A stretch of DNA of 64,000 bases from Escherichia coli 042 (GTDB lineage Bacteria > Pseudomonadota > Gammaproteobacteria > Enterobacterales > Enterobacteriaceae): NCBI RefSeq assembly GCF_000027125.1, contig NC_017626.1; one strand, given 5' to 3'. The position numbers and the translations under genes were made by a program. Positions 4,754 through 44,622 of the stretch are shown here, piece after piece; positions within the stretch are counted from its first letter, which is position 1, and the number at the start of each line of letters is the position of its first letter. Below the pieces are notes generated by a model. The model saw only the letters and a program-made list of their open reading frames with translations. It was not told the origin of the DNA and searched no databases.

Positions 4754-5677
4754 TCACGCCGCCAGCAAGGAGACGAACGCTAAAAATGCAAAGCCAAACC
4801 CAGCCCAGGTAATGCGCGGAGTAATATCAAGACGCAGACGGGCCATGCTGTTTTCGAACAGCGCGATAACCAGGACGCCAACCACCAGTTTGACGATGGC
4901 AATCACCAACGCCAGCAGCAGCCCACCGACGGTGAAGGTTTCCATTTGTCCCCACGGAATAAACACCCCGACGAACATCTGCAGCACCACCAACTGTTTC
5001 AGGCTGATACCCCATTTCATGACGCCAAAGCCGCTGCCGCTGTACTCAGAGAGCGGACCTTCCTGCAACTCCTGCTCGGCTTCCGCCAGGTCGAACGGCA
5101 GTTTGCCCATTTCGATAAAAGTGGCGAACGCACAGGCACAAAGCGCCAGCACCAGCGGGATGCTCTGGCTCAGCGGCCAGTGATAAACGGTGTCGGTGAT
5201 GTTGCTGATGTTGGTGGAACCGGCAACCTGTGCGGCAACCCACAGACCAAGCAGCAACATCGGTTCGACCAGCACGCCAAGCATCGCTTCACGGCTCGCG
5301 CCGATAGCGGTAAACGGGCTACCGGTATCCAGACCAGAAATAGCAAAGAAGAAACGCGCGATGGCAAAGAGATACAGTAAAGTGATCAAATCGCCCAGCT
5401 GCGGCAGCGGAGAACCAACGGTCACCACCGGCAGCGCAGTAGCGATAGTCAGCATGACGCCCACCATCACATACGGCGTCAGGCGGAACACCCAGCCGGA
5501 GGCATCCGGGCCAACGCTCTGGCGACCCAGCAGTTTGATAATGTCGCGATACTCCTGCAACACGCCCGGCCCGCGACGGTTATGCAAGCGGGCACGCGCC
5601 ACGCGGGTTATACCGGAGAGCAGCGGCGCAACGGCAAATAACACCAGCGCCTGAATTAACGGATATAAAACACTCAT
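4754..5677 (-). CDS. hycD: formate hydrogenlyase membrane subunit (NuoH-like)
   Basis: 307 aa polytopic membrane protein; operon position. Confidence 0.93.
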   Translation of the reverse strand: MSVLYPLIQALVLFAVAPLLSGITRVARARLHNRRGPGVLQEYRDIIKLLGRQSVGPDASGWVFRLTPYVMVGVMLTIATALPVVTVGSPLPQLGDLITLLYLFAIARFFFAISGLDTGSPFTAIGASREAMLGVLVEPMLLLGLWVAAQVAGSTNISNITDTVYHWPLSQSIPLVLALCACAFATFIEMGKLPFDLAEAEQELQEGPLSEYSGSGFGVMKWGISLKQLVVLQMFVGVFIPWGQMETFTVGGLLLALVIAIVKLVVGVLVIALFENSMARLRLDITPRITWAGFGFAFLAFVSLLAA

Positions 5678-5679
5678 TC

Positions 5680-7506
5680 TCAGGCTCCTCGTGAAACAAT
5701 AATCACCACCAGTACCGCCAGTTCAACCAGCGCCATCCGGCGGAACAGCAACGCACTCCCCTCGCACTGCCAGCCCGGCACCAGCGACACCGGATTCAGC
5801 CATTTGCGCAGTTTCAGCACTGGCGCAAACGCCTGTTTCACCGGCATGGCAAAACCGTGAGCAGTAATCACCATTGATTTTTCATGGTCGTAGCCGCACA
5901 CCCAGGCCGCGCCGCGGGAACGCGACGGCAAACGATCGCCTTTGCAAATCGCCATAATGATGAATGGCAGCAGCGGGCAGGCAATCAGCAGCAACGTGAT
6001 CATGGGTTGAGAAACGGTGGTGTTAGCAGGCTCCAGCGGCAGAGGTACAGCAGCAGAGAGCATCGGCAGCAGCCACGGCGCAGCAACACCGCCAATGACG
6101 CAGCAAATCGCCAGTGCCACCACGCTTACGCTCATCAGGAGCGGCGCACAGGTGGCGTTTTCGGCTTCTTTGGTACGCGGCGCGCCGAGGAACGTGACGC
6201 CATAGACTTTCGCCATACACATCACCGCCAGCGCACCGGTAATTGCCAGACCCACAGCGAGCAGCGGCCCCAGCAGACGGGCAACAAACGCGCCACTATT
6301 GCTCAGCTTGAAGAAGGATTGATAGATAACCCATTCCCCGGCAAACCCGTTCAGCGGCGGCAGCGCAGCCATTGCCATCAGCCCGACTAACATGGCGATG
6401 GAGATAACCGGCATTTTCTTGCCAATACCACCGAGTTTTTCGATATCGCGATGACCGGTACGGAACCAGACGCTCCCCGCCCCGAGGAACAGTACGCTTT
6501 TGAACAGGCTATGGTTAAGCAGATGGTACAGACCACCGACCAGGCCAAGAGCAATCAGCGCCGGTTGTTCGAGCGCGATACCCGTTACGCCAGCGCCCAG
6601 CCCCAGCAGGATAATGCCGATATTCTCCAGGGTGTGGTAAGCCAGCAGGCGCTGGATGTTGTGTTCCATCAACGCATACAGACCACCGACGAACGCGGTG
6701 ATCATGCCGAGCACCAGCAGCGCGATCCCCCACCACAGCGGTGCATTACCGCCCAGCAGCGACAGGGTTAAAATGCCCAGCAGGCCAATTTTCATGACTA
6801 CCGTAGAAAACAACGCGGCAGCTGGCGCAGAGGCGTTAGCATGTGCCTGCGGCACCCAGCCGTGCAGCGGAATAATCCCGGCCAGCAGGCCAAAGCCAAT
6901 CACACCGAGCAGCCAGATATCGGAACCGAGCGGCAGCTGTTGCATACGCATATCCAGCAGGCGCAGATCCAGCGTGCCGTAACGCTGCCACAGCAGCCAG
7001 CAGGCAATCGCCAGCAGCAGAGTGCCAAGACGCCCCAGCGCAAACCACAGTTTGCCCTCTTTGCTGTTGCTGGTGAGGAACACCGCACACAGGGCCATGA
7101 TTTCGGCCATTACCACGAACATGCCGAGGTTGCTGGCGATGACGGCACAGACGGCGGCAGCCATCAACATATTGATCTGCAAGCCGTTGCATTTCACCTG
7201 CGCGTGGCGATGCCAGTCAATGTTGTAGAGGCTGACAAACAGACCGCACAGGCCGAGCGTAATCAGCCAAATCGCGTTAAGCGGAGAGATTTGCACATCG
7301 TAGCTTACCAGCGACAGCGCACCGCTCACGCCAACCGCACCAGTCAGCACAGTGAAGCCCGCGGCTGCCGTATACAGGCTACCCACCGCGCCGCCAATTC
7401 CGGCTATCCAGCCACTCAGCGCCTTTTGAAAAGAAAAGAGAAATGCCAGAACAGCGGCGGCGGCAAACCACGCCACGCCACTATTGATCAGGGAAATTGC
7501 GCTCAT
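5680..7506 (-). CDS. hycC: formate hydrogenlyase membrane subunit (NuoL/antiporter-like)
   Basis: 608 aa polytopic membrane protein; operon position. Confidence 0.93.
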   Translation of the reverse strand: MSAISLINSGVAWFAAAAVLAFLFSFQKALSGWIAGIGGAVGSLYTAAAGFTVLTGAVGVSGALSLVSYDVQISPLNAIWLITLGLCGLFVSLYNIDWHRHAQVKCNGLQINMLMAAAVCAVIASNLGMFVVMAEIMALCAVFLTSNSKEGKLWFALGRLGTLLLAIACWLLWQRYGTLDLRLLDMRMQQLPLGSDIWLLGVIGFGLLAGIIPLHGWVPQAHANASAPAAALFSTVVMKIGLLGILTLSLLGGNAPLWWGIALLVLGMITAFVGGLYALMEHNIQRLLAYHTLENIGIILLGLGAGVTGIALEQPALIALGLVGGLYHLLNHSLFKSVLFLGAGSVWFRTGHRDIEKLGGIGKKMPVISIAMLVGLMAMAALPPLNGFAGEWVIYQSFFKLSNSGAFVARLLGPLLAVGLAITGALAVMCMAKVYGVTFLGAPRTKEAENATCAPLLMSVSVVALAICCVIGGVAAPWLLPMLSAAVPLPLEPANTTVSQPMITLLLIACPLLPFIIMAICKGDRLPSRSRGAAWVCGYDHEKSMVITAHGFAMPVKQAFAPVLKLRKWLNPVSLVPGWQCEGSALLFRRMALVELAVLVVIIVSRGA

Positions 7507-8736: not shown

Positions 8737-8754
8737 AGCATTTTCTGTGCCAAC
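8737..8754 (-). promoter_or_regulatory. sigma-54 promoter (-24/-12) for the hyc operon
   Basis: Minus-strand read TGGCAC-agaaa-ATGC (plus strand gcattttctgtgcca) about 40 bp upstream of hycA start. Confidence 0.6.
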
Positions 8755-8865: not shown

Positions 8866-8881
8866 TGGCACAATTATTGCT
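8866..8881 (+). promoter_or_regulatory. sigma-54 promoter (-24/-12) for the hyp operon
   Basis: TGGCAC-aatta-TTGCT about 30 bp upstream of hypA start. Confidence 0.65.
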
Positions 8882-8911: not shown

Positions 8912-9262
8912 ATGCACGAAATAACCCTCTGCCAACGGGCACTGGAATTGATCGAACAGCAGGCCGCAAAACACGGCGCAAAACGCGTAACTGGGGTCTG
9001 GCTCAAAATTGGCGCATTTTCTTGTGTCGAAACCAGCTCTCTTGCCTTTTGTTTTGATCTGGTTTGCCGCGGCAGCGTGGCGGAAGGTTGTAAACTGCAC
9101 CTCGAAGAACAAGAGGCCGAATGCTGGTGTGAAACATGCCAACAGTATGTGACGCTACTGACCCAACGCGTCCGCCGCTGTCCACAGTGTCATGGTGACA
9201 TGCTACAGATTGTGGCAGACGACGGTTTACAGATTCGGCGGATAGAAATAGACCAGGAGTGA
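8912..9262 (+). CDS. hypA: hydrogenase nickel incorporation protein
   Basis: Starts MHEITLCQRALELIEQQ; C-terminal CxxC...CPxC zinc site; 116 aa. Confidence 0.95.
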   Translation: MHEITLCQRALELIEQQAAKHGAKRVTGVWLKIGAFSCVETSSLAFCFDLVCRGSVAEGCKLHLEEQEAECWCETCQQYVTLLTQRVRRCPQCHGDMLQIVADDGLQIRRIEIDQE

Positions 9263-9265
9263 GCG

Positions 9266-10138
9266 ATGTGTACAACATGCGGTTGCGGTGAAGGCAACCT
9301 GTATATCGAGGGTGATGAACATAACCCTCATTCCGCGTTTCGTAGCGCGCCATTTGCCCCGGCGGCACGCCCGAAGATGAAAATCACCGGCATTAAAGCG
9401 CCTGAATTTACCCCCAGCCAGACTGAAGAAGGCGACCTGCATTACGGTCATGGCGAAGCGGGTACTCACGCGCCGGGCATGAGCCAGCGTCGGATGCTGG
9501 AAGTCGAAATTGACGTGCTGGACAAAAATAACCGTCTGGCTGAACGCAACCGCGCGCGCTTTGCTGCCCGCAAGCAACTGGTGCTCAACCTGGTTTCCAG
9601 CCCTGGTTCAGGTAAAACCACCCTGCTGACGGAAACTTTAATGCGCCTGAAAGACAGCGTTCCGTGCGCGGTTATTGAAGGCGATCAGCAAACCGTGAAC
9701 GATGCCGCACGCATTCGCGCTACCGGCACACCAGCGATTCAGGTGAATACCGGTAAAGGCTGCCATCTTGACGCACAGATGATTGCCGACGCCGCACCGC
9801 GCCTGCCACTGGACGATAACGGTATTCTGTTTATCGAAAACGTCGGCAACCTCGTGTGCCCGGCCAGCTTCGATCTCGGTGAAAAACACAAAGTGGCGGT
9901 GCTTTCCGTTACCGAAGGTGAAGACAAACCGCTGAAATATCCGCATATGTTTGCCGCAGCTTCGCTGATGCTGCTCAACAAAGTTGACTTGCTGCCGTAT
10001 CTCAACTTTGACGTTGAGAAGTGCATCGCCTGCGCCCGCGAAGTCAATCCAGAAATTGAAATCATCCTTATTTCCGCCACCAGCGGCGAAGGGATGGACC
10101 AGTGGCTGAACTGGCTGGAGACACAGCGATGTGCATAG
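9266..10138 (+). CDS. hypB: hydrogenase nickel incorporation GTPase
   Basis: 290 aa; N-terminal [10 protein letters not shown] metal-binding motif, His-rich stretch, P-loop GSPGSGKTT. Confidence 0.95.
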
Positions 10139-10401
10139 GCGTTCCCGGGCAGATCCGCACCATTGACGGCAACCAGGCGAAAGTCGACGTCTGCGGCATT
10201 CAGCGCGACGTCGATTTAACGTTAGTCGGCAGCTGCGATGAAAACGGTCAGCCACGCGTGGGCCAGTGGGTACTGGTTCACGTTGGCTTTGCCATGAGCG
10301 TAATTAATGAAGCCGAAGCGCGCGACACTCTCGACGCCTTACAAAACATGTTTGACGTTGAGCCGGATGTCGGTGCGCTGTTGTATGGCGAGGAAAAATA
10401 A
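10129..10401 (+). CDS. hypC: hydrogenase maturation chaperone
   Basis: Starts [12 protein letters not shown] (HypC N-terminal Cys motif); 90 aa; track ORF 10102.. is an upstream extension. Confidence 0.93.
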
Positions 10402-11522
10402 TGCGTTTTGTTGATGAATATCGCGCGCCGGAACAGGTGATGCAGTTAATTGAGCATCTGCGCGAACGTGCTTCACATCTCTCTTACACCGCCGAACGCC
10501 CTCTGCGGATTATGGAAGTGTGCGGTGGTCATACCCACGCCATTTTTAAATTCGGCCTCGACCAGTTGCTGCCGGAAAACGTTGAGTTTATCCACGGTCC
10601 CGGTTGCCCGGTGTGTGTACTGCCGATGGGTAGAATCGACACCTGCGTGGAGATTGCCAGCCATCCGGAAGTCATCTTCTGTACCTTTGGCGACGCCATG
10701 CGCGTGCCGGGGAAACAGGGATCGCTGTTGCAGGCAAAAGCACGCGGTGCCGATGTGCGCATCGTTTACTCGCCGATGGATGCGTTGAAACTGGCGCAGG
10801 AGAATCCAACCCGCAAAGTGGTGTTCTTCGGCTTAGGTTTTGAAACCACCATGCCGACGACGGCCATCACTCTGCAACAGGCGAAAGCGCGTGATGTGCA
10901 GAATTTTTACTTCTTCTGCCAGCATATTACGCTTATCCCGACGCTGCGCAGTTTGCTGGAAGAGCCGGATAACGGTATCGACGCGTTTCTTGCGCCCGGT
11001 CACGTTAGTATGGTTATCGGCACTGATGCCTATAATTTTATCGCCAGCGATTTTCATCGTCCGCTGGTGGTCGCTGGTTTCGAACCCCTTGATCTACTGC
11101 AAGGCGTGGTGATGCTGGTGGAGCAGAAAATAGCGGCCCACAGCAAGGTTGAGAATCAGTATCGTCGGGTGGTGCCGGATGCCGGTAACCTGCTGGCGCA
11201 ACAGGCGATTGCCGATGTGTTCTGTGTCAACGGCGACAGCGAATGGCGCGGCTTAGGCGTGATTGAATCTTCTGGTGTACACCTGACGCCGGATTATCAA
11301 CGATTCGATGCCGAAGCGCATTTCCGCCCGGCACCGCAGCAGGTCTGCGATGACCCGCGCGCACGTTGTGGCGAAGTATTAACGGGCAAATGTAAGCCGC
11401 ATCAATGCCCGCTGTTTGGTAACACCTGTAATCCTCAAACCGCGTTTGGTGCGCTGATGGTTTCCTCCGAAGGAGCGTGCGCCGCGTGGTATCAGTATCG
11501 TCAGCAGGAGAGTGAAGCGTGA
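10401..11522 (+). CDS. hypD: hydrogenase maturation Fe-S protein
   Basis: 373 aa; CGGHTH, GPGCPVCV and FGNTCNP motifs. Confidence 0.95.
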   Translation: MRFVDEYRAPEQVMQLIEHLRERASHLSYTAERPLRIMEVCGGHTHAIFKFGLDQLLPENVEFIHGPGCPVCVLPMGRIDTCVEIASHPEVIFCTFGDAMRVPGKQGSLLQAKARGADVRIVYSPMDALKLAQENPTRKVVFFGLGFETTMPTTAITLQQAKARDVQNFYFFCQHITLIPTLRSLLEEPDNGIDAFLAPGHVSMVIGTDAYNFIASDFHRPLVVAGFEPLDLLQGVVMLVEQKIAAHSKVENQYRRVVPDAGNLLAQQAIADVFCVNGDSEWRGLGVIESSGVHLTPDYQRFDAEAHFRPAPQQVCDDPRARCGEVLTGKCKPHQCPLFGNTCNPQTAFGALMVSSEGACAAWYQYRQQESEA

Positions 11523-12529
11523 ATAATATCCAACTCGCCCACGGTAGCGGCGGCCAGGCGATGCAGCAATTAATCAACAGCCTGTTTATGGAAGCCTTTG
11601 CCAACCCGTGGCTGGCAGAGCAGGAAGATCAGGCACGTCTTGATCTGGCGCAGCTGGTAGCGGAAGGCGACCGTCTGGCGTTCTCCACCGACAGTTACGT
11701 CATTGACCCGCTGTTCTTTCCTGGCGGTAATATCGGCAAGCTGGCGATTTGCGGCACCGCGAATGACGTTGCGGTCAGTGGCGCTATTCCGCGCTATCTC
11801 TCCTGTGGCTTTATCCTCGAAGAAGGATTGCCGATGGAGACACTGAAAGCCGTAGTGACCAGCATGGCAGAAACCGCCCGCGCGGCAGGCATTGCCATCG
11901 TCACTGGCGATACTAAAGTGGTGCAGCGCGGCGCGGCAGATAAACTGTTTATCAACACCGCTGGCATGGGCGCAATTCCGGCGAATATTCACTGGGGCGC
12001 ACAGACGCTAACCGCAGGCGATGTATTGCTGGTTAGCGGTACACTCGGGGACCACGGGGCGACTATCCTTAACCTGCGTGAGCAACTGGGGCTGGACGGC
12101 GAACTAGTCAGCGACTGCGCGGTACTAACGCCGCTTATTCAGACGCTGCGTGACATTCCCGGCGTGAAAGCGCTGCGTGATGCCACCCGTGGTGGTGTGA
12201 ACGCGGTAGTTCATGAGTTCGCGGCAGCCTGCGGTTGCGGTATTGAAATTTCAGAAGCGGCACTGCCGGTTAAACCTGCTGTGCGCGGCGTTTGCGAACT
12301 GCTGGGACTGGACGCCCTTAACTTTGCCAACGAAGGCAAACTGGTGATCGCCGTTGAACGCAACGCGGCAGAGCAAGTGCTGGCAGCGTTACATTCCCAT
12401 CCACTGGGAAAAGACGCGGCGCTGATTGGTGAAGTGGTGGAACGTAAAGGTGTTCGTCTTGCCGGTCTGTATGGCGTGAAACGAACCCTCGATCTACCGC
12501 ACGCCGAACCGCTTCCGCGTATATGCTAA
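11519..12529 (+). CDS. hypE: carbamoyl dehydratase (hydrogenase cyanide-ligand synthesis)
   Basis: 336 aa PurM-like fold protein ending PRIC; operon position. Confidence 0.93.
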   Translation: MNNIQLAHGSGGQAMQQLINSLFMEAFANPWLAEQEDQARLDLAQLVAEGDRLAFSTDSYVIDPLFFPGGNIGKLAICGTANDVAVSGAIPRYLSCGFILEEGLPMETLKAVVTSMAETARAAGIAIVTGDTKVVQRGAADKLFINTAGMGAIPANIHWGAQTLTAGDVLLVSGTLGDHGATILNLREQLGLDGELVSDCAVLTPLIQTLRDIPGVKALRDATRGGVNAVVHEFAAACGCGIEISEAALPVKPAVRGVCELLGLDALNFANEGKLVIAVERNAAEQVLAALHSHPLGKDAALIGEVVERKGVRLAGLYGVKRTLDLPHAEPLPRIC

Positions 12530-12602: not shown

Positions 12603-14681
12603 ATGTCATATACACCGATGAGTGATCTCGGACAACAAGGGTTGTTCGACATCACTCGGACACTATTGCAGCAGCCCGATCTGGCCTCGCTGTGTGAGGC
12701 TCTTTCGCAACTGGTAAAGCGTTCTGCGCTCGCCGACAACGCGGCTATTGTGTTGTGGCAAGCGCAGACTCAACGTGCGTCTTATTACGCATCGCGTGAA
12801 AAAGACACCCCCATTAAATATGAAGACGAAACTGTTCTGGCACACGGTCCGGTACGCAGCATTTTGTCGCGCCCTGATACGCTGCATTGCAGTTACGAAG
12901 AATTTTGTGAAACCTGGCCGCAGCTGGCCGCAGGTGGGCTATACCCCAAATTTGGTCACTATTGCCTGATGCCACTGGCGGCGGAAGGGCATATTTTTGG
13001 TGGCTGTGAATTTATTCGTTATGACGATCGCCCCTGGAGCGAAAAAGAGTTCAATCGTCTGCAAACATTTACGCAGATCGTTTCTGTCGTCACCGAACAA
13101 ATCCAGAGCCGCGTCGTCAATAATGTCGACTATGAGTTGTTATGCCGGGAGCGCGATAACTTCCGCATCCTGGTTGCCATTACCAACGCGGTGCTTTCCC
13201 GCCTGGATATGGACGAACTGGTCAGCGAAGTCGCCAAAGAAATCCATTACTACTTCGACATTGACGATATCAGCATCGTCTTACGCAGCCACCGTAAAAA
13301 CAAACTCAACATCTACTCCACTCACTATCTTGATAAACAACATCCCGCCCACGAACAGAGCGAAGTCGATGAAGCCGGAACCCTCACCGAACGCGTGTTC
13401 AAAAGTAAAGAGATGCTGCTGATTAATCTCCACGAGCGGGATGATTTAGCCCCCTACGAACGCATGTTGTTCGACACCTGGGGCAACCAGATTCAAACCT
13501 TGTGCCTGTTACCGCTGATGTCTGGCGACACCATGCTGGGCGTGCTGAAACTGGCGCAATGCGAAGAGAAAGTGTTTACCACTACTAATCTGAATTTACT
13601 GCGCCAGATTGCCGAACGTGTGGCAATCGCTGTCGATAACGCCCTCGCCTATCAGGAAATCCATCGTCTGAAAGAACGGCTGGTTGATGAAAACCTCGCC
13701 CTGACCGAGCAGCTCAACAATGTTGATAGTGAATTTGGCGAGATTATTGGCCGCAGCGAAGCCATGTACAGCGTGCTTAAACAAGTTGAAATGGTGGCGC
13801 AAAGTGACAGTACCGTGCTGATCCTCGGTGAAACTGGCACGGGTAAAGAGCTGATTGCCCGCGCGATCCATAATCTCAGTGGGCGTAATAATCGCCGCAT
13901 GGTCAAAATGAACTGCGCGGCGATGCCTGCCGGATTGCTGGAAAGCGATCTGTTTGGTCATGAGCGTGGGGCTTTTACCGGTGCCAGCGCCCAGCGCATT
14001 GGTCGTTTTGAACTGGCGGATAAAAGCTCTCTGTTCCTCGACGAAGTGGGCGATATGCCACTGGAGTTACAGCCGAAGTTGCTGCGTGTATTGCAGGAAC
14101 AGGAGTTTGAACGCCTCGGCAGCAACAAAATCATTCAGACGGACGTGCGTCTAATCGCCGCGACTAACCGCGATCTGAAAAAAATGGTCGCCGACCGAGA
14201 GTTCCGTAGCGATCTCTATTACCGCCTGAACGTATTCCCGATCCACCTGCCGCCACTACGCGAGCGTCCGGAAGATATTCCGCTGCTGGCGAAAGCCTTT
14301 ACCTTCAAAATTGCCCGTCGTCTGGGGCGCAATATCGACAGCATTCCTGCCGAGACGCTGCGCACCTTGAGCAACATGGAGTGGCCGGGTAACGTACGCG
14401 AACTGGAAAACGTCATTGAGCGCGCGGTATTGCTAACACGCGGCAACGTGCTGCAGCTGTCATTGCCAGATATTGCTTTACCGGAGCCTGAAACGCCGCC
14501 TGCCGCAACGGTTGTCGCTCAGGAGGGCGAAGATGAATATCAGTTGATTGTTCGCGTGCTGAAAGAAACTAACGGCGTGGTTGCCGGGCCTAAAGGCGCT
14601 GCGCAACGTCTGGGGCTGAAACGCACGACCCTGCTGTCACGGATGAAGCGACTGGGAATTGATAAATCGGCATTGATTTAA
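12603..14681 (+). CDS. fhlA: formate hydrogenlyase transcriptional activator (sigma-54 enhancer-binding protein)
   Basis: Starts MSYTPMSDLGQQ; GAF domains, AAA+ sigma-54 interaction motifs (GETGTGKE, GAFTGA), C-terminal HTH; 692 aa. Confidence 0.95.
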   Translation: MSYTPMSDLGQQGLFDITRTLLQQPDLASLCEALSQLVKRSALADNAAIVLWQAQTQRASYYASREKDTPIKYEDETVLAHGPVRSILSRPDTLHCSYEEFCETWPQLAAGGLYPKFGHYCLMPLAAEGHIFGGCEFIRYDDRPWSEKEFNRLQTFTQIVSVVTEQIQSRVVNNVDYELLCRERDNFRILVAITNAVLSRLDMDELVSEVAKEIHYYFDIDDISIVLRSHRKNKLNIYSTHYLDKQHPAHEQSEVDEAGTLTERVFKSKEMLLINLHERDDLAPYERMLFDTWGNQIQTLCLLPLMSGDTMLGVLKLAQCEEKVFTTTNLNLLRQIAERVAIAVDNALAYQEIHRLKERLVDENLALTEQLNNVDSEFGEIIGRSEAMYSVLKQVEMVAQSDSTVLILGETGTGKELIARAIHNLSGRNNRRMVKMNCAAMPAGLLESDLFGHERGAFTGASAQRIGRFELADKSSLFLDEVGDMPLELQPKLLRVLQEQEFERLGSNKIIQTDVRLIAATNRDLKKMVADREFRSDLYYRLNVFPIHLPPLRERPEDIPLLAKAFTFKIARRLGRNIDSIPAETLRTLSNMEWPGNVRELENVIERAVLLTRGNVLQLSLPDIALPEPETPPAATVVAQEGEDEYQLIVRVLKETNGVVAGPKGAAQRLGLKRTTLLSRMKRLGIDKSALI

Positions 14682-14725
14682 CAGATGTGGTTATACTCGA
14701 TCAACATTCAATGAAAGGAGGCAGT

Positions 14726-15154
14726 ATGGCAGTTTCAGCAAGAAATCAATTAACCGGAACAGTTAGCGCAGTAGCAATGGGCGCTGTGAATGATGAAGTA
14801 GAACTGACGCTGGCAGGTGGTGCAAAGCTGGTGGCAATTGTGACTCACAGCAGCCAGCAAGCGCTGGGTCTGGCGAAAGGGAAAGAAGCGATTGCCCTGA
14901 TTAAAGCCCCGTGGGTAACGCTGGCAACGGAAGACTGTGGACTGAAATTCTCTGCTCGCAACCAGTTTGCTGGCAGCGTGTCGACAATCACCGAAGGCGC
15001 AGTGAACGCCACTGTCCATATCAAAACGGATGCGGGTTTTGAAATTGTGGCAGTGGTAACAAATGAAAGTCAGGATGAAATGAAACTCACCACTGGCTCA
15101 CGCGTTATTGCATTGATCAAAGCATCAGCCATCCTGATTGCCACCAAAGCGTAA
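14726..15154 (+). CDS. tandem Mop/TOBE-domain protein (putative molybdate-binding molbindin)
   Basis: Two ~70 aa internal repeats (ARNQLTGTVS...LIKAPWVTLATE and ARNQFAGSVS...LIKASAILIATKA); aaaggagg RBS before ATG at 14726; alternative start at 14711. Confidence 0.7.
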   Translation: MAVSARNQLTGTVSAVAMGAVNDEVELTLAGGAKLVAIVTHSSQQALGLAKGKEAIALIKAPWVTLATEDCGLKFSARNQFAGSVSTITEGAVNATVHIKTDAGFEIVAVVTNESQDEMKLTTGSRVIALIKASAILIATKA

Positions 15155-15192
15155 GCGCCTTATTTGCCGGAGAGTATGGCTCTCCGGCAGAT

Positions 15193-15537
15193 TTATTTCT
15201 TTGGACGATATTTTTCTGGCAACTCCGGCACCGGACGCTTGTCATCGATGAGATGACGCACGGTTAAGATCGGATGACGCCACAGCATTCTCGGCCCGGC
15301 CCAACGCATAATCTGTTTCATCTCTTCACGCTTTGCAGGCTGGTAACAGTGCACCGGACACTGCTTACAGGCTGGTTTCTCTTCGCCGAACACACATTTA
15401 TCCAGCCGCTTTTGCGCGTAGGCAAACAGCGCGTCGTAATGCTCCGGCTCCGCTGACGCCTGCGGGCATTTCGCTTGATAAAGATCGATCATTTTTTTAA
15501 TCGTCAGTTTTTCACGAGAGATACGCTTGCCGGACAT
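15193..15537 (-). CDS. ygbA: conserved Cys-rich protein of the nitrosative-stress regulon
   Basis: 114 aa ORF with CxxC pairs; position between fhlA and mutS. Confidence 0.8.
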   Translation of the reverse strand: MSGKRISREKLTIKKMIDLYQAKCPQASAEPEHYDALFAYAQKRLDKCVFGEEKPACKQCPVHCYQPAKREEMKQIMRWAGPRMLWRHPILTVRHLIDDKRPVPELPEKYRPKK

Positions 15538-15823: not shown

Positions 15824-18385
15824 ATGAGTGCAATAGAAAATTTCGATGCCCATACGCCCATGATGCAGCAGTATCTCAAGCTGAAAGCCCAGCATCCCGA
15901 GATCCTGCTGTTTTACCGGATGGGTGATTTTTATGAACTGTTTTATGACGATGCAAAACGCGCGTCGCAGCTGCTGGATATTTCACTGACCAAACGCGGT
16001 GCTTCCGCGGGAGAGCCGATCCCGATGGCGGGGATCCCCTACCATGCGGTGGAAAACTACCTCGCCAAACTGGTGAATCAGGGCGAGTCCGTTGCCATCT
16101 GCGAACAAATTGGCGATCCGGCGACCAGCAAAGGTCCAGTTGAGCGCAAAGTTGTGCGTATCGTTACGCCAGGCACCATCAGCGATGAAGCCCTGTTACA
16201 AGAGCGCCAGGACAATCTGCTGGCGGCTATCTGGCAGGACAGTAAAGGTTTCGGCTACGCGACGCTGGATATCAGTTCCGGTCGTTTTCGCCTGAGCGAA
16301 CCGGCTGACCGGGAAACGATGGCGGCAGAACTGCAACGCACTAATCCGGCGGAACTGCTATATGCAGAAGATTTTGCTGAGATGTCGCTGATTGAAGGTC
16401 GTCGCGGTCTGCGCCGTCGTCCGCTGTGGGAGTTTGAAATCGACACCGCGCGCCAGCAGTTGAATCTGCAATTTGGCACCCGCGATCTGGTCGGTTTTGG
16501 CGTCGAGAACGCGCCGCGCGGACTTTGTGCTGCCGGTTGTCTGTTGCAGTATGCGAAAGATACCCAACGTACGACTCTGCCGCATATTCGTTCTATCACT
16601 ATGGAACGTGAGCAGGACAGCATCATTATGGATGCCGCGACGCGTCGTAACCTGGAAATTACCCAGAACCTGGCGGGCGGTGCGGAAAACACGCTGGCTT
16701 CAGTGCTCGACTGCACTGTAACGCCGATGGGTAGTCGTATGCTGAAACGCTGGCTGCATATGCCAGTGCGCGATACCCGCGTGTTGCTTGAGCGCCAGCA
16801 AACTATTGGCGCATTGCAGGATTTCACCGCCGAGCTACAGCCGGTGCTGCGTCAGGTCGGCGACCTGGAACGTATTCTGGCGCGTCTGGCTTTACGAACT
16901 GCTCGCCCACGCGATCTGGCCCGTATGCGTCACGCTTTCCAGCAACTGCCGGAGCTGCGTGCGCAGTTAGAAAATGTCGATAGCGCTCCGGTACAGGCGC
17001 TACGTGAAAAAATGGGCGAGTTTGCCGAGCTGCGCGATCTGCTGGAGCGGGCAATCATCGACACACCGCCAGTGCTGGTACGCGACGGTGGTGTTATCGC
17101 ATCGGGCTATAACGAAGAGCTGGATGAGTGGCGCGCGCTGGCTGACGGCGCGACCGATTATCTGGAGCGTCTGGAAGTCCGCGAGCGTGAACGTACTGGC
17201 CTGGACACGCTGAAAGTCGGCTTTAACGCGGTTCATGGTTATTACATTCAGATCAGCCGTGGACAAAGCCATCTGGCACCCATCAACTACATGCGTCGCC
17301 AGACGCTGAAAAACGCCGAGCGCTACATCATTCCAGAGCTAAAAGAGTACGAAGATAAAGTTCTCACCTCAAAAGGCAAAGCACTGGCACTGGAAAAACA
17401 ACTTTATGAAGAGCTGTTCGACCTGCTGTTGCCGCATCTGGAAGCGTTGCAACAGAGCGCGAGCGCGCTGGCGGAACTTGATGTGCTGGTTAACCTGGCG
17501 GAACGGGCCTATACCCTGAACTACACCTGCCCGACCTTCATTGATAAACCGGGTATTCGCATCACCGAAGGTCGCCATCCGGTGGTTGAACAGGTACTGA
17601 ACGAGCCATTTATCGCCAACCCGCTGAACCTGTCGCCGCAGCGTCGCATGTTGATCATTACCGGTCCGAATATGGGCGGTAAAAGTACCTATATGCGCCA
17701 GACCGCACTGATTGCGCTGATGGCCTACATCGGCAGCTATGTACCGGCACAAAAAGTCGAGATTGGACCTATCGACCGTATCTTCACCCGCGTAGGGGCA
17801 GCGGATGATCTGGCATCCGGGCGTTCAACCTTTATGGTGGAGATGACCGAAACCGCCAATATTCTGCATAACGCCACCGAGTACAGTCTGGTGCTGATGG
17901 ATGAGATTGGGCGCGGGACGTCCACTTACGATGGTCTGTCGCTGGCGTGGGCGTGCGCGGAAAATCTGGCGAATAAGATTAAAGCGTTGACGTTGTTTGC
18001 CACCCACTATTTCGAGCTGACCCAGTTACCGGAGAAAATGGAAGGCGTCGCCAACGTGCATCTCGATGCACTGGAGCACGGCGACACCATTGCCTTTATG
18101 CACAGCGTGCAGGATGGCGCGGCGAGCAAAAGCTACGGCCTGGCGGTTGCAGCTCTGGCGGGCGTGCCAAAAGAGGTTATTAAGCGCGCACGGCAAAAAC
18201 TGCGTGAGCTGGAAAGCATTTCGCCGAACGCCGCCGCGACACAGGTCGATGGCACGCAGATGTCGCTGCTTTCAGTGCCGGAAGAAACCTCGCCCGCGGT
18301 GGAAGCGCTGGAAAATCTCGACCCGGATTCACTCACTCCGCGCCAGGCGCTGGAGTGGATTTATCGGTTGAAGAGTCTGGTATAA
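15824..18385 (+). CDS. mutS: DNA mismatch repair protein
   Basis: 853 aa; Walker [10 protein letters not shown]; N-terminal [18 protein letters not shown]. Confidence 0.97.
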
Positions 18386-40511: not shown

Positions 40512-43169
40512 TCAACCAACCTTGCCAGTCAATCCTTCCATAGCCGAATACCCGCAACTTTCGTCATCGGTGACTAAAATCACGTTTGCCATCTCCGGAT
40601 CTTGCCGCTGTTCAATGCACCACTGCCTGAACGCATCCCCTTCCAGTAAAGAAAACTCATCCCGATGTTTTTTCCACCAGCTTCGACGCACTCTGACAAC
40701 GCTCATTTCCCATGCGTGAGCACCGGTGGCATAAGGCTTCACCACACCGTCAATACAGGTAGCCAGCCACAGGGAAACAGATTCCTCAGCCAGACGTGTC
40801 GACAGCTTTTCCGGAAGGTAATCGTTGATATTGGCGGCATAGCCAGGCTTGAAGTTCAGGACAAACTTTTTAGCCATTGCGCGATCGCAGTAATATTTGC
40901 CCACTTGCTCCTGCTCACTGCGGGCAAATCCTTCCGGCATTGCCACGTCTTCACCGTAGACTGATTCAATAAGAAGCCGGGCTGCGTGTGGCATCTGAAT
41001 AGCGCCTTGCTCACGCAGCACACGCTGCGTCAGCCAGATTCGCCCATGATCGGGGTAGACATATGCACTGTTACGCATGGCGCTGCCAAACCATTCGTCA
41101 CCCGGAGAGTCATCCCAGACGGGAGCCAGAATCAGCAATTCAGGAGGGGAACGCTCATCTTTTCCGTCACGCTTTAACTGACCATTAATATCGCGGATAT
41201 GCCGCTGTAATCGCCCCGCCCGCTGGATTAGCAAATCAATGTGGGCCAGGTCGGAGATCATTTCGTCCAGGTCACAATCGACGCTCTGCTCTAATACCTG
41301 AGTACAAATAAGGACTTTTCCGGCACGCTGTGAGTTACCTTCTTTACCAAAGCGTGCCAGCGTTTCCGTTTCAATTCGCTGGCGATCGCTAAAAGCAAAG
41401 CGGCTATGAAAAAGTGAAAGGCTGGAAGCGGGAATGACGCCGCGGGCAAGCAGCTGACGATGAACCTTAATAGCGTCATCGACAGAATTCCGGATCCAGG
41501 CGATGCATTTCCCCTGACTTACCGCCGATTCGATATGTGCAATACATTCTTGTTCGCTATGAAGCCAACCCACACACACGTTGCGCTCAACTTCTTTGCG
41601 CGTCGCTACCCGGTGCGAATGCAAATCGGATTTCGTGACATGCGTCAGCCATGGGTAATCATCCTTTTCAAGGAACGGAGCTTCTTGTTGGCCCTCTGCA
41701 CCACGCGCAAAGGCAGCGACGAGTTTGTCGCGCTGCTGTTGAGATAACGTAGCAGAAAGCAAAATGATACTGTTTCCGCCACGCGCCTGCCGCTCAATCA
41801 ATCCTTCAAGAATGCACGACATGTAAGCGTCACAGGCATGGATCTCATCAGCCAGCAGGATTTTTTTACTCAACCCCAGAAGCCGCAGATTATTATGTTT
41901 GAACGGCATCACCGCCATCATCGCCTGATCCAAGGTGCCGACGCCAATTTCAGCCAGCAACGCCTTCTTGTTACTGTCGGCAAACCAGGCCGCACATCCC
42001 TGGCTGAACGCTTGTTCATCCGGTTCTTCTGACCCGACTAAATCACCGGACCAGAGTGATTCATTGAAGCGGTCCATTAATGTATGGGCACTGTGTGCCA
42101 GCACCAGGCTGGGGCGGGATTCTGGCGAATAGAAAGCAAGCCAGGTTTTGACCAGCCGATCGTACATGGCATTGGCCGTTGCCATTGTTGGCAGGCCAAA
42201 AAACAAACCCTGAGCTTTCCCCGCAGCCATCAACCTGTGGACCATGATAAGCGCTGCTTCTGTTTTACCTGCGCCAGTCACATCCTCCAGAATAAATAAC
42301 TGTGGCCCAGGCTGGCTGATATCCAGATCCAGTACCTTTTGCTGTAACGGTGTCGGGTGCTCAATAAAAGGAAACAGTGTATTAATTCCGGTGAAAGGCG
42401 CGGTTTGTGCTTTTGGAGGAAAGACGGTTAAGGCGTTTTGAGCCTGAACTAAAGCCTTCTGCCAGTAATCTTTAATATCCATTGCCTGTGCAACGCGTGG
42501 AAAAAACCGCGTTGACGATCCCGTCCAGTCTGCGAGTACGACGGTTGCAGAGATATACCAGGAAAGTTGTTTTATAAGTTCAACGCCCTCGTCATCATCC
42601 CAGAATGTGGGGATCTCGATGAGCGGGAACAGTGTCTTGATTGCAAGGAGAAAATCTCGTGCGGCAGCTTTGTCTTCAGGCAGAAAATTATCCAGTTCAT
42701 CCATACGATCAGGAGGCTGACCATGATGCCCGGTAGTCATGGGCATCCACATCTCTATTACCCGTTTAAGTTTGCGGGGAGAGAGTGAAGATGAAGGAAG
42801 CAACTCTTCACATTCAATTAAATAATGATTCCACAACCAGTAGCCCAGCGTTGAATGAGAGATCTTTTCGTAATTTTTTCTTGCACTTTCCGGAACCTTG
42901 AGCTGTGGGTGCAGGTAAAGTTGCTGAAAAGAGCGGGCAAATTTTCCAGTATCGTGCCAACACAGCAACCAGGCGAAAAATTGTGCTGCCTGCTCCGTGT
43001 CAGCGATACCTAATTGACGAAAATAGTCAGCCAACCCGAAACAGTTGTTTTTGACCATTAAATAACCCGTCGCGGCTACATCCAGCGAATGCCAGCAAAG
43101 TAGATGATAGTCGTCGCCGCCCTCTTTCTCGCCACGTCGGGTTTTTCCCCAGAAATCAAAGAAAGTCAC
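40512..43169 (-). CDS. cas3: CRISPR-associated nuclease-helicase Cas3 (HD domain + SF2 helicase)
   Basis: 885 aa; N-terminal HD motifs (LCWHSLDV, HDTGK), Walker A GAGKT, DEAH-like LADEIH. Confidence 0.95.
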   Translation of the reverse strand: MTFFDFWGKTRRGEKEGGDDYHLLCWHSLDVAATGYLMVKNNCFGLADYFRQLGIADTEQAAQFFAWLLCWHDTGKFARSFQQLYLHPQLKVPESARKNYEKISHSTLGYWLWNHYLIECEELLPSSSLSPRKLKRVIEMWMPMTTGHHGQPPDRMDELDNFLPEDKAAARDFLLAIKTLFPLIEIPTFWDDDEGVELIKQLSWYISATVVLADWTGSSTRFFPRVAQAMDIKDYWQKALVQAQNALTVFPPKAQTAPFTGINTLFPFIEHPTPLQQKVLDLDISQPGPQLFILEDVTGAGKTEAALIMVHRLMAAGKAQGLFFGLPTMATANAMYDRLVKTWLAFYSPESRPSLVLAHSAHTLMDRFNESLWSGDLVGSEEPDEQAFSQGCAAWFADSNKKALLAEIGVGTLDQAMMAVMPFKHNNLRLLGLSKKILLADEIHACDAYMSCILEGLIERQARGGNSIILLSATLSQQQRDKLVAAFARGAEGQQEAPFLEKDDYPWLTHVTKSDLHSHRVATRKEVERNVCVGWLHSEQECIAHIESAVSQGKCIAWIRNSVDDAIKVHRQLLARGVIPASSLSLFHSRFAFSDRQRIETETLARFGKEGNSQRAGKVLICTQVLEQSVDCDLDEMISDLAHIDLLIQRAGRLQRHIRDINGQLKRDGKDERSPPELLILAPVWDDSPGDEWFGSAMRNSAYVYPDHGRIWLTQRVLREQGAIQMPHAARLLIESVYGEDVAMPEGFARSEQEQVGKYYCDRAMAKKFVLNFKPGYAANINDYLPEKLSTRLAEESVSLWLATCIDGVVKPYATGAHAWEMSVVRVRRSWWKKHRDEFSLLEGDAFRQWCIEQRQDPEMANVILVTDDESCGYSAMEGLTGKVG

Positions 43170-43380
43170 AATGTTTTTATCCTTCAGTAAAACTTAAAGG
43201 ATATTTACGCATATATTAAAAATTATCTGTGATATATATCGTTCAATAAAACATTTACATTATGAATAATCAAATAGTTTTCATCCGTAATATATATGAA
43301 TAATAAACATAGGCATAATATTCACATAAACAATATAAATTAAAAAAGGGTGCAGGAGACCAAACCATCACAATTCAGTA

Positions 43381-43823: not shown

Positions 43824-44558
43824 TTACCCTTCGTGTAACCCACATTCCCTTTTTAAGCCAAAGAAACGCGTTTCTTCTTCCGCCATGCCGGGTTCCCATT
43901 TACGGGTTGTATGGGTATCACCGACGGATAAATATCCTTCGTCCCATAATGGATGATATTTCAGGCCATGTTTTTGCAGATACTGATATATCGTTCGGTT
44001 ATCCCAGTCGATAATCGGCAGCACTTTAAATACGCCACGCTGAATTGCCAGCACCGGTAAATTGGCGCGACTGCCGGATTGTTCGCGGCGCAGGCCAGCA
44101 AACCACGTTTGCGCATTCAGTTCTTTCAGCGCCCGGTTCATCGGTTCGACTTTGTTGATGTCATTGTACTTTTCAATGCCTTCAACACCCTGCTCCCACA
44201 GTTTGCCGTAGCGCGCTTCCTGCCAGGCGGCGCTTTCGGTAGCGCGGTACACTTTCAGGTTGAGCTTGAGTTTGTCCGTTAACTCGTCAATAAAGCGGTA
44301 GGTTTCCGGGAACAGATAACCCGTATCGGTCAGGATCACCGGGATATCCGGGTGAATCTGATTCACCAGATGCAGGCTCACCGCCGCCTGAATGCCGAAA
44401 CTGGAAGAAAGTACATATTCACCGGGCAGATTATCCAGCGCCCAGGCAACGCGGCCTTCAGCATCCAGTTTTTCCAGTTCGGCGTTAGTTTCTGCCAGCG
44501 CCAGAATGCGATCTACCTTCGGCAGTTCGTTCAGGGCGTTTAGATCGAGTTTGGACAT
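43824..44558 (-). CDS. cysH: phosphoadenosine phosphosulfate (PAPS) reductase
   Basis: 244 aa from [10 protein letters not shown]; C-terminal ECGLH motif. Confidence 0.96.
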
Positions 44559-44577
44559 AGATTCCTCACTGTTTGCT

Positions 44578-44622
44578 TTGCCTGATGCGACGCTCACACG
44601 TCTTATCAGGCCTACAAGACCG
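44578..44622. repeat. REP element
   Basis: gcctgatgcgacgctcacacgtcttatcaggcctaca between cysH and cysI. Confidence 0.7.

Follow-up and report, generated by a model that had tools for sequence, protein, structure and literature searches.

A gene predicted to encode a ModG-type molbindin lies behind fhlA in Escherichia coli 042 and is missing from K-12

The DNA analysed here is a stretch of 64,000 nucleotides from Escherichia coli 042 (RefSeq assembly GCF_000027125.1, contig NC_017626.1), which is referred to below as the window. Its entire fhlA-ygbA intergenic interval, 511 nt from 14682 to 15192, lies between the stop codon of fhlA (14679-81) and that of the convergent ygbA, which begins at 15193, and it is filled by an ORF of 142 codons on the plus strand that we call mop. 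The ORF starts with the ATG at 14726 and stops with the TAA at 15152-15154. A Shine-Dalgarno sequence, AAAGGAGG, is found at 14714-14721 and the ATG follows 4 nt downstream. An earlier note on this DNA had described an ORF of 142 codons made of two tandem Mop/TOBE domains, with a good ribosome-binding site, right after fhlA. This description holds, because the TOBE and TIGR00638 profiles each match twice and because the GGAG(G) ahead of the ATG is conserved in the orthologs. The mechanical ORF list and some GenBank records begin the gene at a GTG at 14687, which gives a protein of 155 aa. This start was rejected in view of the conservation of both the Shine-Dalgarno sequence and the ATG and of the constant length of 142 aa among the orthologs; since the full-length orthologs start at the ATG behind GGAG(G), the 142-aa call is the right one. 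Gene names were taken from the RefSeq annotation of strain Ecol_316, which is 99.8% identical over the interval with a coordinate offset of 7099. The features of the locus are collected in Table 1.

Table 1. Features of the hyp-fhlA-mop-ygbA locus, in window coordinates
Feature	Position	Strand	Evidence
sigma54 -24/-12 site TGGCACAATTATTGC, perfect match, 32 nt before hypA	8866..8880	+	pattern scan
hypABCDE, same strand as fhlA-mop	8912..12529	+	Ecol_316 RefSeq annotation; hypD and hypE ORFs seen directly
hypD	10401-11522	+	ORF
hypE	11519-12529	+	ORF
fhlA, formate hydrogenlyase transcriptional activator	12603..14681	+	ORF; RefSeq annotation of Ecol_316 and CFT073
fhlA-mop spacer, 44 nt, with AAAGGAGG and TATACT box (14692-14697)	14682..14725	+	sequence
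mop/modG-like CDS, two tandem Mop (TOBE) domains	14726..15154	+	ORF, Pfam, TIGR00638, 1H9J match, AF2, dN/dS
Mop domain 1 (~residues 1-70)	14726-14935	+	
Mop domain 2 (~residues 72-142)	14939-15151	+	
Intrinsic terminator, 14-bp stem then TTTATTTCTTT, abuts convergent ygbA stop codon	15162..15202	+	terminator scan, RNA fold
ygbA, nitrous-oxide-stimulated promoter family, convergent with mop	15193..15537	-	Pfam YgbA_NO 4.2e-41, NCBIfam NF007713, annotation
mutS, beyond ygbA	15824-18385		

Scans of the 142-aa protein against Pfam and NCBIfam matched TOBE (PF03459, E=8.8e-35) twice and the Mop domain TIGR00638 (E=4.1e-42) twice, and they found no domain besides these two, including no DNA-binding or effector domain. 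The best match among all PDB sequences was ModG of Azotobacter vinelandii (1H9J/K/M), which aligned over residues 1-140 with an E value of 5e-33 and 48% identity. The next matches were the di-Mop domain of E. coli ModE (1e-15) and then the single-domain proteins Tub, MopII, and Mop. An AlphaFold2 (AF2) monomer model was built with 28 homologues and had a mean pLDDT of 96.1. When it was searched with Foldseek, ModG (1H9J) was again the top PDB match, with a TM score of 0.95 and an rmsd of 1.3 Å at 48% identity, and the ModE di-Mop domain came next with TM scores of 0.88-0.90. The comparisons of sequence and of model thus confirm that the small gene after fhlA is predicted to code for a full-length homologue of ModG, that is, a di-Mop molbindin of the ModG type. 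Two other identities were considered and rejected. A ModE transcription factor does not fit because the match to NF007957 covers profile positions 124-261 only, scores 88 bits against a cut-off of 369, and the N-terminal winged-helix domain is absent. Similarly, a ModC/WtpC ABC ATPase was rejected because the C-terminal TOBE part alone aligns, with 47-49 bits against cut-offs of 285-440.

The residues that contact the oxyanion are known from Tub. Its type-1 site, on the threefold axis, is made by the backbone of A20-V21-N22, and its type-2 site, at the dimer interface, is made by S4, R6, K60, and A61 together with S40 from the neighbouring chain (PMC11980592). These contacts were mapped onto the window protein by domain-wise alignment. 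They fall on S4/R6/A20/V21/N22/T40/K60/A61 in domain 1 and on S76/R78/A92/V93/N94/T112/K132/A133 in domain 2, and all 16 positions, over both domains, have the same residues as ModG. Across 47 orthologs 13 of the 16 never change, and the other three, V21, V93, and A133, are each replaced in one sequence. Thus the type-2 set of S, R, T/S, K, and A is present in both domains and is invariant except for A133 (V in one ortholog), and the type-1 loop A-V-N is present in both with its A and N invariant. The second Mop domain of ModE does not have the ligand residues and has N76, D78, P112, and N130 instead. Since both domains have the ModG ligand residues and the ModE and ModC scores are far under the cut-offs, the protein is, as judged from its sequence, of the storage-type ModG architecture, and neither a truncated ModE nor the TOBE tail of an ABC transporter. 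Proteins with the ModG/TudG architecture are recognised as a class of storage proteins (PMC11980592). RefSeq labels the protein 'TOBE domain-containing protein' or 'molybdopterin-binding protein', and it is over-annotated by the older database labels 'transporter' and 'molybdate transport system regulatory protein'. Full-text literature searching found no study specific to the enterobacterial gene. The enterobacterial protein is uncharacterised and the kind of protein is already known; what is distinctive are its operon position behind fhlA and a species-wide presence/absence polymorphism that leaves K-12 without the gene.

The two alleles of this polymorphism differ by one clean block of ~470 bp, which begins right behind the fhlA TAA and ends shortly ahead of a terminator hairpin. 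The fhlA and ygbA stops, 511 nt apart in the window, are separated by 36 nt in a genome of the K-12 lineage, and the earlier note was right that the K-12 gap is shorter; the ORF is absent from K-12. Among 5,426 complete E. coli genomes, 1,892 have mop, always as a single chromosomal copy, and 3,508 have the K-12-type junction without mop, and the locus is close to biallelic. K-12, HS, and O157-like genomes do not have the gene, and the junction, read base by base, is identical in four mop-less strains from different sources. The mop+ strains listed include CFT073, APEC O18, APEC O2-211, and an O2:K2:H1 isolate, which we take to be B2/ExPEC types; the CFT073 protein (WP_000301062.1) is identical to that of the window.

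Outside E. coli, the order hypE-fhlA-mop was found in ~35 species genomes from at least a dozen genera of the Enterobacteriaceae. These include E. albertii, another Escherichia species, eight Citrobacter, Pseudocitrobacter, Raoultella, Klebsiella, Kluyvera, Pluralibacter, Yokenella, Enterobacter, Lelliottia, and Kosakonia. In most of the genera with this linkage the fhlA-mop gap is ~45-60 nt, and across them ygbA is usually just downstream. Genes for a metal ABC transporter of the SitABCD type separate mop from ygbA in Raoultella, Klebsiella, and some Enterobacter. This insert has a ZnuA-family binding protein, an ABC ATPase, and two ABC-3 permeases, as identified by Pfam in one Raoultella sp. 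locus (L014, 6687-10106) and by the same spacing in four others (L016, L018, L021, and L025). Hence, the genomes vary at the mop-ygbA junction. In Phytobacter and Kosakonia sp. S29 (L035, L040, and L047, ~4858-6429), mop comes directly after hypE with a gap of ~130 nt and fhlA was not detected in these mop loci, so that mop remains linked to the hyp operon in loci without fhlA. Serratia, Cedecea, and Edwardsiella have the ortholog in unrelated contexts with no molybdenum or formate hydrogenlyase (FHL) genes beside it. The contexts other than fhlA (Serratia, Cedecea, Edwardsiella, Phytobacter, and Enterobacter sp.) gave no functional hints, the neighbours being genes for an aldehyde dehydrogenase, an alginate lyase, an amino-acid permease, a HAD hydrolase, and an ATP-grasp protein. 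Some Salmonella enterica homologues that are 87-89% identical are likewise not behind fhlA (L052/L053, 6001-6429; L058, 5001-5429; L059, 4025-4453). They sit in accessory islands, together with fimbrial genes of the chaperone-usher type and fragments of IS66/IS21, and on two Salmonella contigs the homologue is ~3 kb from an Oxidored_molyb and Ni_hydr_CYTB (YedYZ/MsrPQ-like) pair.

How the gene came to be present in some strains and absent from others, and whether it is still functional, can be judged from these data together with its rate of change. The earlier note had suggested a strain-specific insertion, that is, that a strain or lineage recently acquired the gene between fhlA and ygbA. 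The absence of the gene from K-12, HS, and O157-like genomes and its presence in 35% of complete E. coli genomes would agree with this, as would the Salmonella homologues that do occur in islands with IS elements. However, fhlA-mop linkage is common to E. albertii, Citrobacter, Klebsiella, Raoultella, Kluyvera, Enterobacter, Kosakonia, and others. Synonymous divergence and base composition are also comparable with those of the flanking genes: against E. albertii dS is 0.37 for mop, 0.59 for fhlA, and 0.33 for ygbA, against Citrobacter it is ~0.95-0.97 for mop and 1.2-1.7 for fhlA, and the GC content is 50.7% for mop and 52.6% for fhlA. No repeats, integrase, IS, or other mobility genes were found at the mop borders, and the mop-less junction looks like a single allele. 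The insertion is thus effectively refuted and we regard it as highly improbable. Since fhlA and mop are linked across genera, dS and GC are like those of the neighbours, and one junction is shared, the explanation that remains is that mop was present in the ancestor and that the K-12-type allele lost it. Hence, mop is an old enterobacterial gene that K-12 and ~65% of E. coli lost by a deletion of ~470 bp, and the mop-less state is probably one deletion allele that is now predominant in the species. An even less credible explanation, to which we give practically no weight, is that mop is a non-functional leftover, a decaying ORF kept by linkage alone. The gene is dispensable in most E. coli and a few shortened copies exist: three of the 1,892 E. 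coli matches cover <80% of the gene (e.g. NZ_CP070152.1) and Enterobacter sp. EA-1 has a 113-aa form (L045, 6001-6340). These damaged copies indicate occasional independent decay besides the common deletion allele. For the gene as a whole, decay is refuted by the orthologs. A scan of one genome per bacterial species gave 49 loci, of which 46 have an ortholog with a length of exactly 142 aa that starts at the same ATG behind GGAG(G); 58 columns are invariant across 47 sequences, all of 142 aa; the ligand residues are conserved; and pairwise dN/dS against the window gene is 0.03-0.11, values that indicate strong purifying selection on mop.

The terminator region differs between the two alleles. 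The K-12-type hairpin (AATTGCCGGACAG...CCTGTCCGGCATACT) resembles the hairpin found 3' of mop in C. amalonaticus (L010), which suggests that the mop-less allele was derived from a mop+ allele with that type of terminator. About 55 bp at the terminator hairpin and the 3' end of ygbA are strongly diverged between the alleles (window 15155-15215 against 2583-2640 of the mop-less locus L001), whereas the flanks are ~98-99% identical. The hairpin sequences differ, and YgbA, with 114 aa in the mop+ window, has 117 aa where mop is missing. This divergence gives the impression that both E. coli alleles are old or that one of them was imported.

The position of mop bears on how it may be transcribed. 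A terminator scan found no terminator-like site in the 44-nt fhlA-mop spacer, and RNA folding showed the spacer to be unstructured (dG -6.2 kcal/mol, z +0.34). The first strong plus-strand terminator after fhlA is the 14-bp hairpin at 15162-15192 followed by TTTATTTCTTT (dG -23.1 kcal/mol, z -4.84). In K-12 the equivalent hairpin is directly 3' of fhlA. As mop begins 44 nt after fhlA and the only strong terminator comes behind it, the hyp-fhlA transcript probably has mop as its last gene. In K-12 fhlA is read from the hyp promoters and from a weak promoter of its own. The sigma54 site before hypA is the sole -24/-12 match without a mismatch in the 64-kb window and is a putative formate- and FhlA-dependent promoter from which transcription could read through to mop. 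A match with one mismatch is found on the minus strand at 8738-8752 in the divergent hycA-hypA region, and the two agree with what is known of the hyp and hyc promoters that depend on FhlA. A promoter of the sigma54/FhlA type directly before mop was also considered and rejected, there being no site at that place.

Other promoter and operator candidates were looked for as well. A scan for a sigma70 consensus promoter in the fhlA-mop spacer found none. The TATACT box, ~30 nt before the ATG, was spotted by eye. It is conserved as TATACT/TATAAA in Escherichia, Citrobacter, Pseudocitrobacter, Kluyvera, and Pluralibacter (TATAAA or TATAAC in the last), while the rest of the spacer drifts, and no -35 element to match it was found. 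The box may be the -10 element of a promoter specific for mop. If this is the case, then mop expression need not follow that of fhlA. No ModE operator (TATAT-N7-TAYAT) was found before mop within one mismatch. Elsewhere in the window, three overlapping half-site matches to ModE with one mismatch are found at 43200-43250, a very AT-rich region upstream of an 885-aa ORF (40512-43169, minus strand) that we read as cas3-like; the next ORF beyond them codes for 257 aa (43824-44597, minus strand). A ModE site there was rejected, the most likely explanation being a compositional effect of the AT-rich region.

Based on these findings we propose, as the likely explanation, that mop codes for a cytoplasmic ModG-type molbindin at the end of the hypABCDE-fhlA unit that acts as a local reservoir or buffer of molybdate, and that it is an ancestral and accessory gene. 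By analogy with A. vinelandii ModG, the protein is predicted to form a trimer, the equivalent of a Mop hexamer. Such a trimer would have room for as many as eight molybdate or tungstate ions: the A-V-N backbone would form two sites on the threefold axis, and S, R, T, K, and A would form six buried sites at the interfaces. As the probable last gene in the hypABCDE-fhlA unit, mop is likely to be expressed with the FHL machinery, under the same anaerobic, formate-rich conditions. The protein would then hold molybdate (or tungstate) for the synthesis of molybdenum cofactor for formate dehydrogenase-H (FDH-H) and other molybdoenzymes, a role that we infer from its architecture and position. The earlier note had likewise suggested a protein that locally buffers or signals molybdate, which is plausible and agrees with the place of the gene in the operon. 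Since ~65% of E. coli do not have the gene, it is not essential for FHL. The position beside fhlA could also mean inherited synteny and not functional coupling, and a tight link with FHL is weakened by the dispensability of the gene, by its unrelated contexts in other genera, and by the Salmonella islands.

Two other roles have to be weighed against a molybdate buffer. Mop could be a regulatory molbindin that signals molybdate status, competing with ModE or contacting FhlA or another regulator, and so tunes hyc, fdhF, and molybdoenzyme operons. Its gene is directly behind that of the FHL activator, the di-Mop module is the sensor module of ModE, and ModE-molybdate is said, reportedly by Self and co-workers in 1999, to be a secondary activator of hyc. 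In addition, A. vinelandii ModG has been described as a molybdate homeostasis factor that affects nitrogenase cofactor synthesis (PMC11980592). However, the window protein has no DNA-binding or effector domain, its binding sites are complete in both domains, which is the case in the storage-type ModG but not in ModE, and the regulation of hyc by molybdate was worked out in K-12, which does not have the gene. Signalling is for these reasons an unlikely function. The other role, the 'TudG' one, would be directed at tungstate: the protein would sequester tungstate and so keep it out of the molybdenum cofactor and prevent it from inactivating FDH-H and other molybdoenzymes. It is true that Mop/TOBE sites take both oxyanions, that Tub binds both, that tungstate complexes of ModE and MopII exist, and that many gut proteins with the ModG architecture have been predicted to serve tungsten (PMC11980592). 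But the site residues are identical to those of the molybdate-binding ModG, the sequence gives no basis for selectivity, and the neighbourhood has no tup or tungsten-enzyme genes, and we therefore give a dedicated tungstate function a low probability. A molybdate reservoir remains the reading that we prefer.

As a piece of gene annotation the finding is ordinary, because the protein family is well understood and a generic RefSeq annotation exists. Its interest lies in the species. Molybdate handling in E. coli is known almost wholly from K-12, and the inventory of ModABC, ModE, ModF, and the molybdenum cofactor enzymes omits a cytoplasmic molbindin, although the gene for one is present in ~35% of sequenced E. 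coli, including the uropathogen CFT073, and in most other Enterobacteriaceae sampled. Tungstate is built into the cofactor in place of molybdenum. The position at the end of hyp-fhlA suggests that molybdate is stocked while the molybdo-selenoenzyme FDH-H is made. If the protein is a molybdate buffer or a tungstate trap, it could explain differences between strains in anaerobic formate and nitrate metabolism and in the response to tungstate. It is conceivable, though we are doubtful, that the presence or absence of mop is a natural species-wide switch in molybdenum and tungsten handling, in which mop+ lineages (CFT073 and the strains of APEC/ExPEC type) hold a cytoplasmic oxyanion store induced by formate and anaerobiosis. 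If this is true, then the activity of FDH-H and other molybdoenzymes under molybdenum scarcity and the sensitivity to tungstate poisoning should differ between mop+ and K-12-type strains, and conclusions drawn in K-12 on molybdenum homeostasis and tungstate treatment would not be transferable to about one third of E. coli or to most other Enterobacteriaceae.

Among known systems the window protein is most like A. vinelandii ModG (1H9J/1H9K/1H9M), whose structures are those of Delarbre et al. 2001 as cited through PMC11980592. Both proteins consist of two Mop domains alone, with 142 aa against 145 aa, and the 48% identity runs end to end, with the fold and all 16 ligand residues in common. The surroundings of the genes differ. 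In A. vinelandii modG is in the mod (molybdate transport) locus, is regulated by ModE, and serves nitrogenase (PMC11980592 and references 30 and 41 therein), whereas the window gene comes after hypE-fhlA, has ygbA and mutS as neighbours, no mod genes and no ModE box, and is found in enterics that are non-diazotrophic. The C-terminal di-Mop part of E. coli ModE (1O7L, 1H9S, and 1B9M) has the same tandem Mop fold at ~35% identity, and its first Mop domain has the binding residues SARNQ...T..S...KAPWV in common with the window protein. ModE, however, has an N-terminal HTH DNA-binding domain that the window protein does not have, and its second Mop domain is without ligand residues whereas the window protein is intact in both. 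To the TOBE domains of ModC/WtpC there is a weak similarity over the C-terminal ~65 residues (E 1e-12 to 1e-13), but an ATPase domain is missing from the window protein, whose scores are far too low for the family cut-offs. Finally, each half of the protein aligns with the Mop/Tub molbindins, namely, C. pasteurianum MopII (1GUG), S. ovata Mop (1FR3), and E. limosum Tub (9BEB), with E values from 1e-9 to 1e-5; the identity to Tub is ~40%, the rmsd to these single-domain proteins is 1.2-1.4 Å, and the site residues are the same. These proteins are single domains of ~70 aa that form hexamers, unlike the window protein in which two domains are fused, and because of this fusion a trimer would give the same particle of six domains as the Mop/Tub hexamer.
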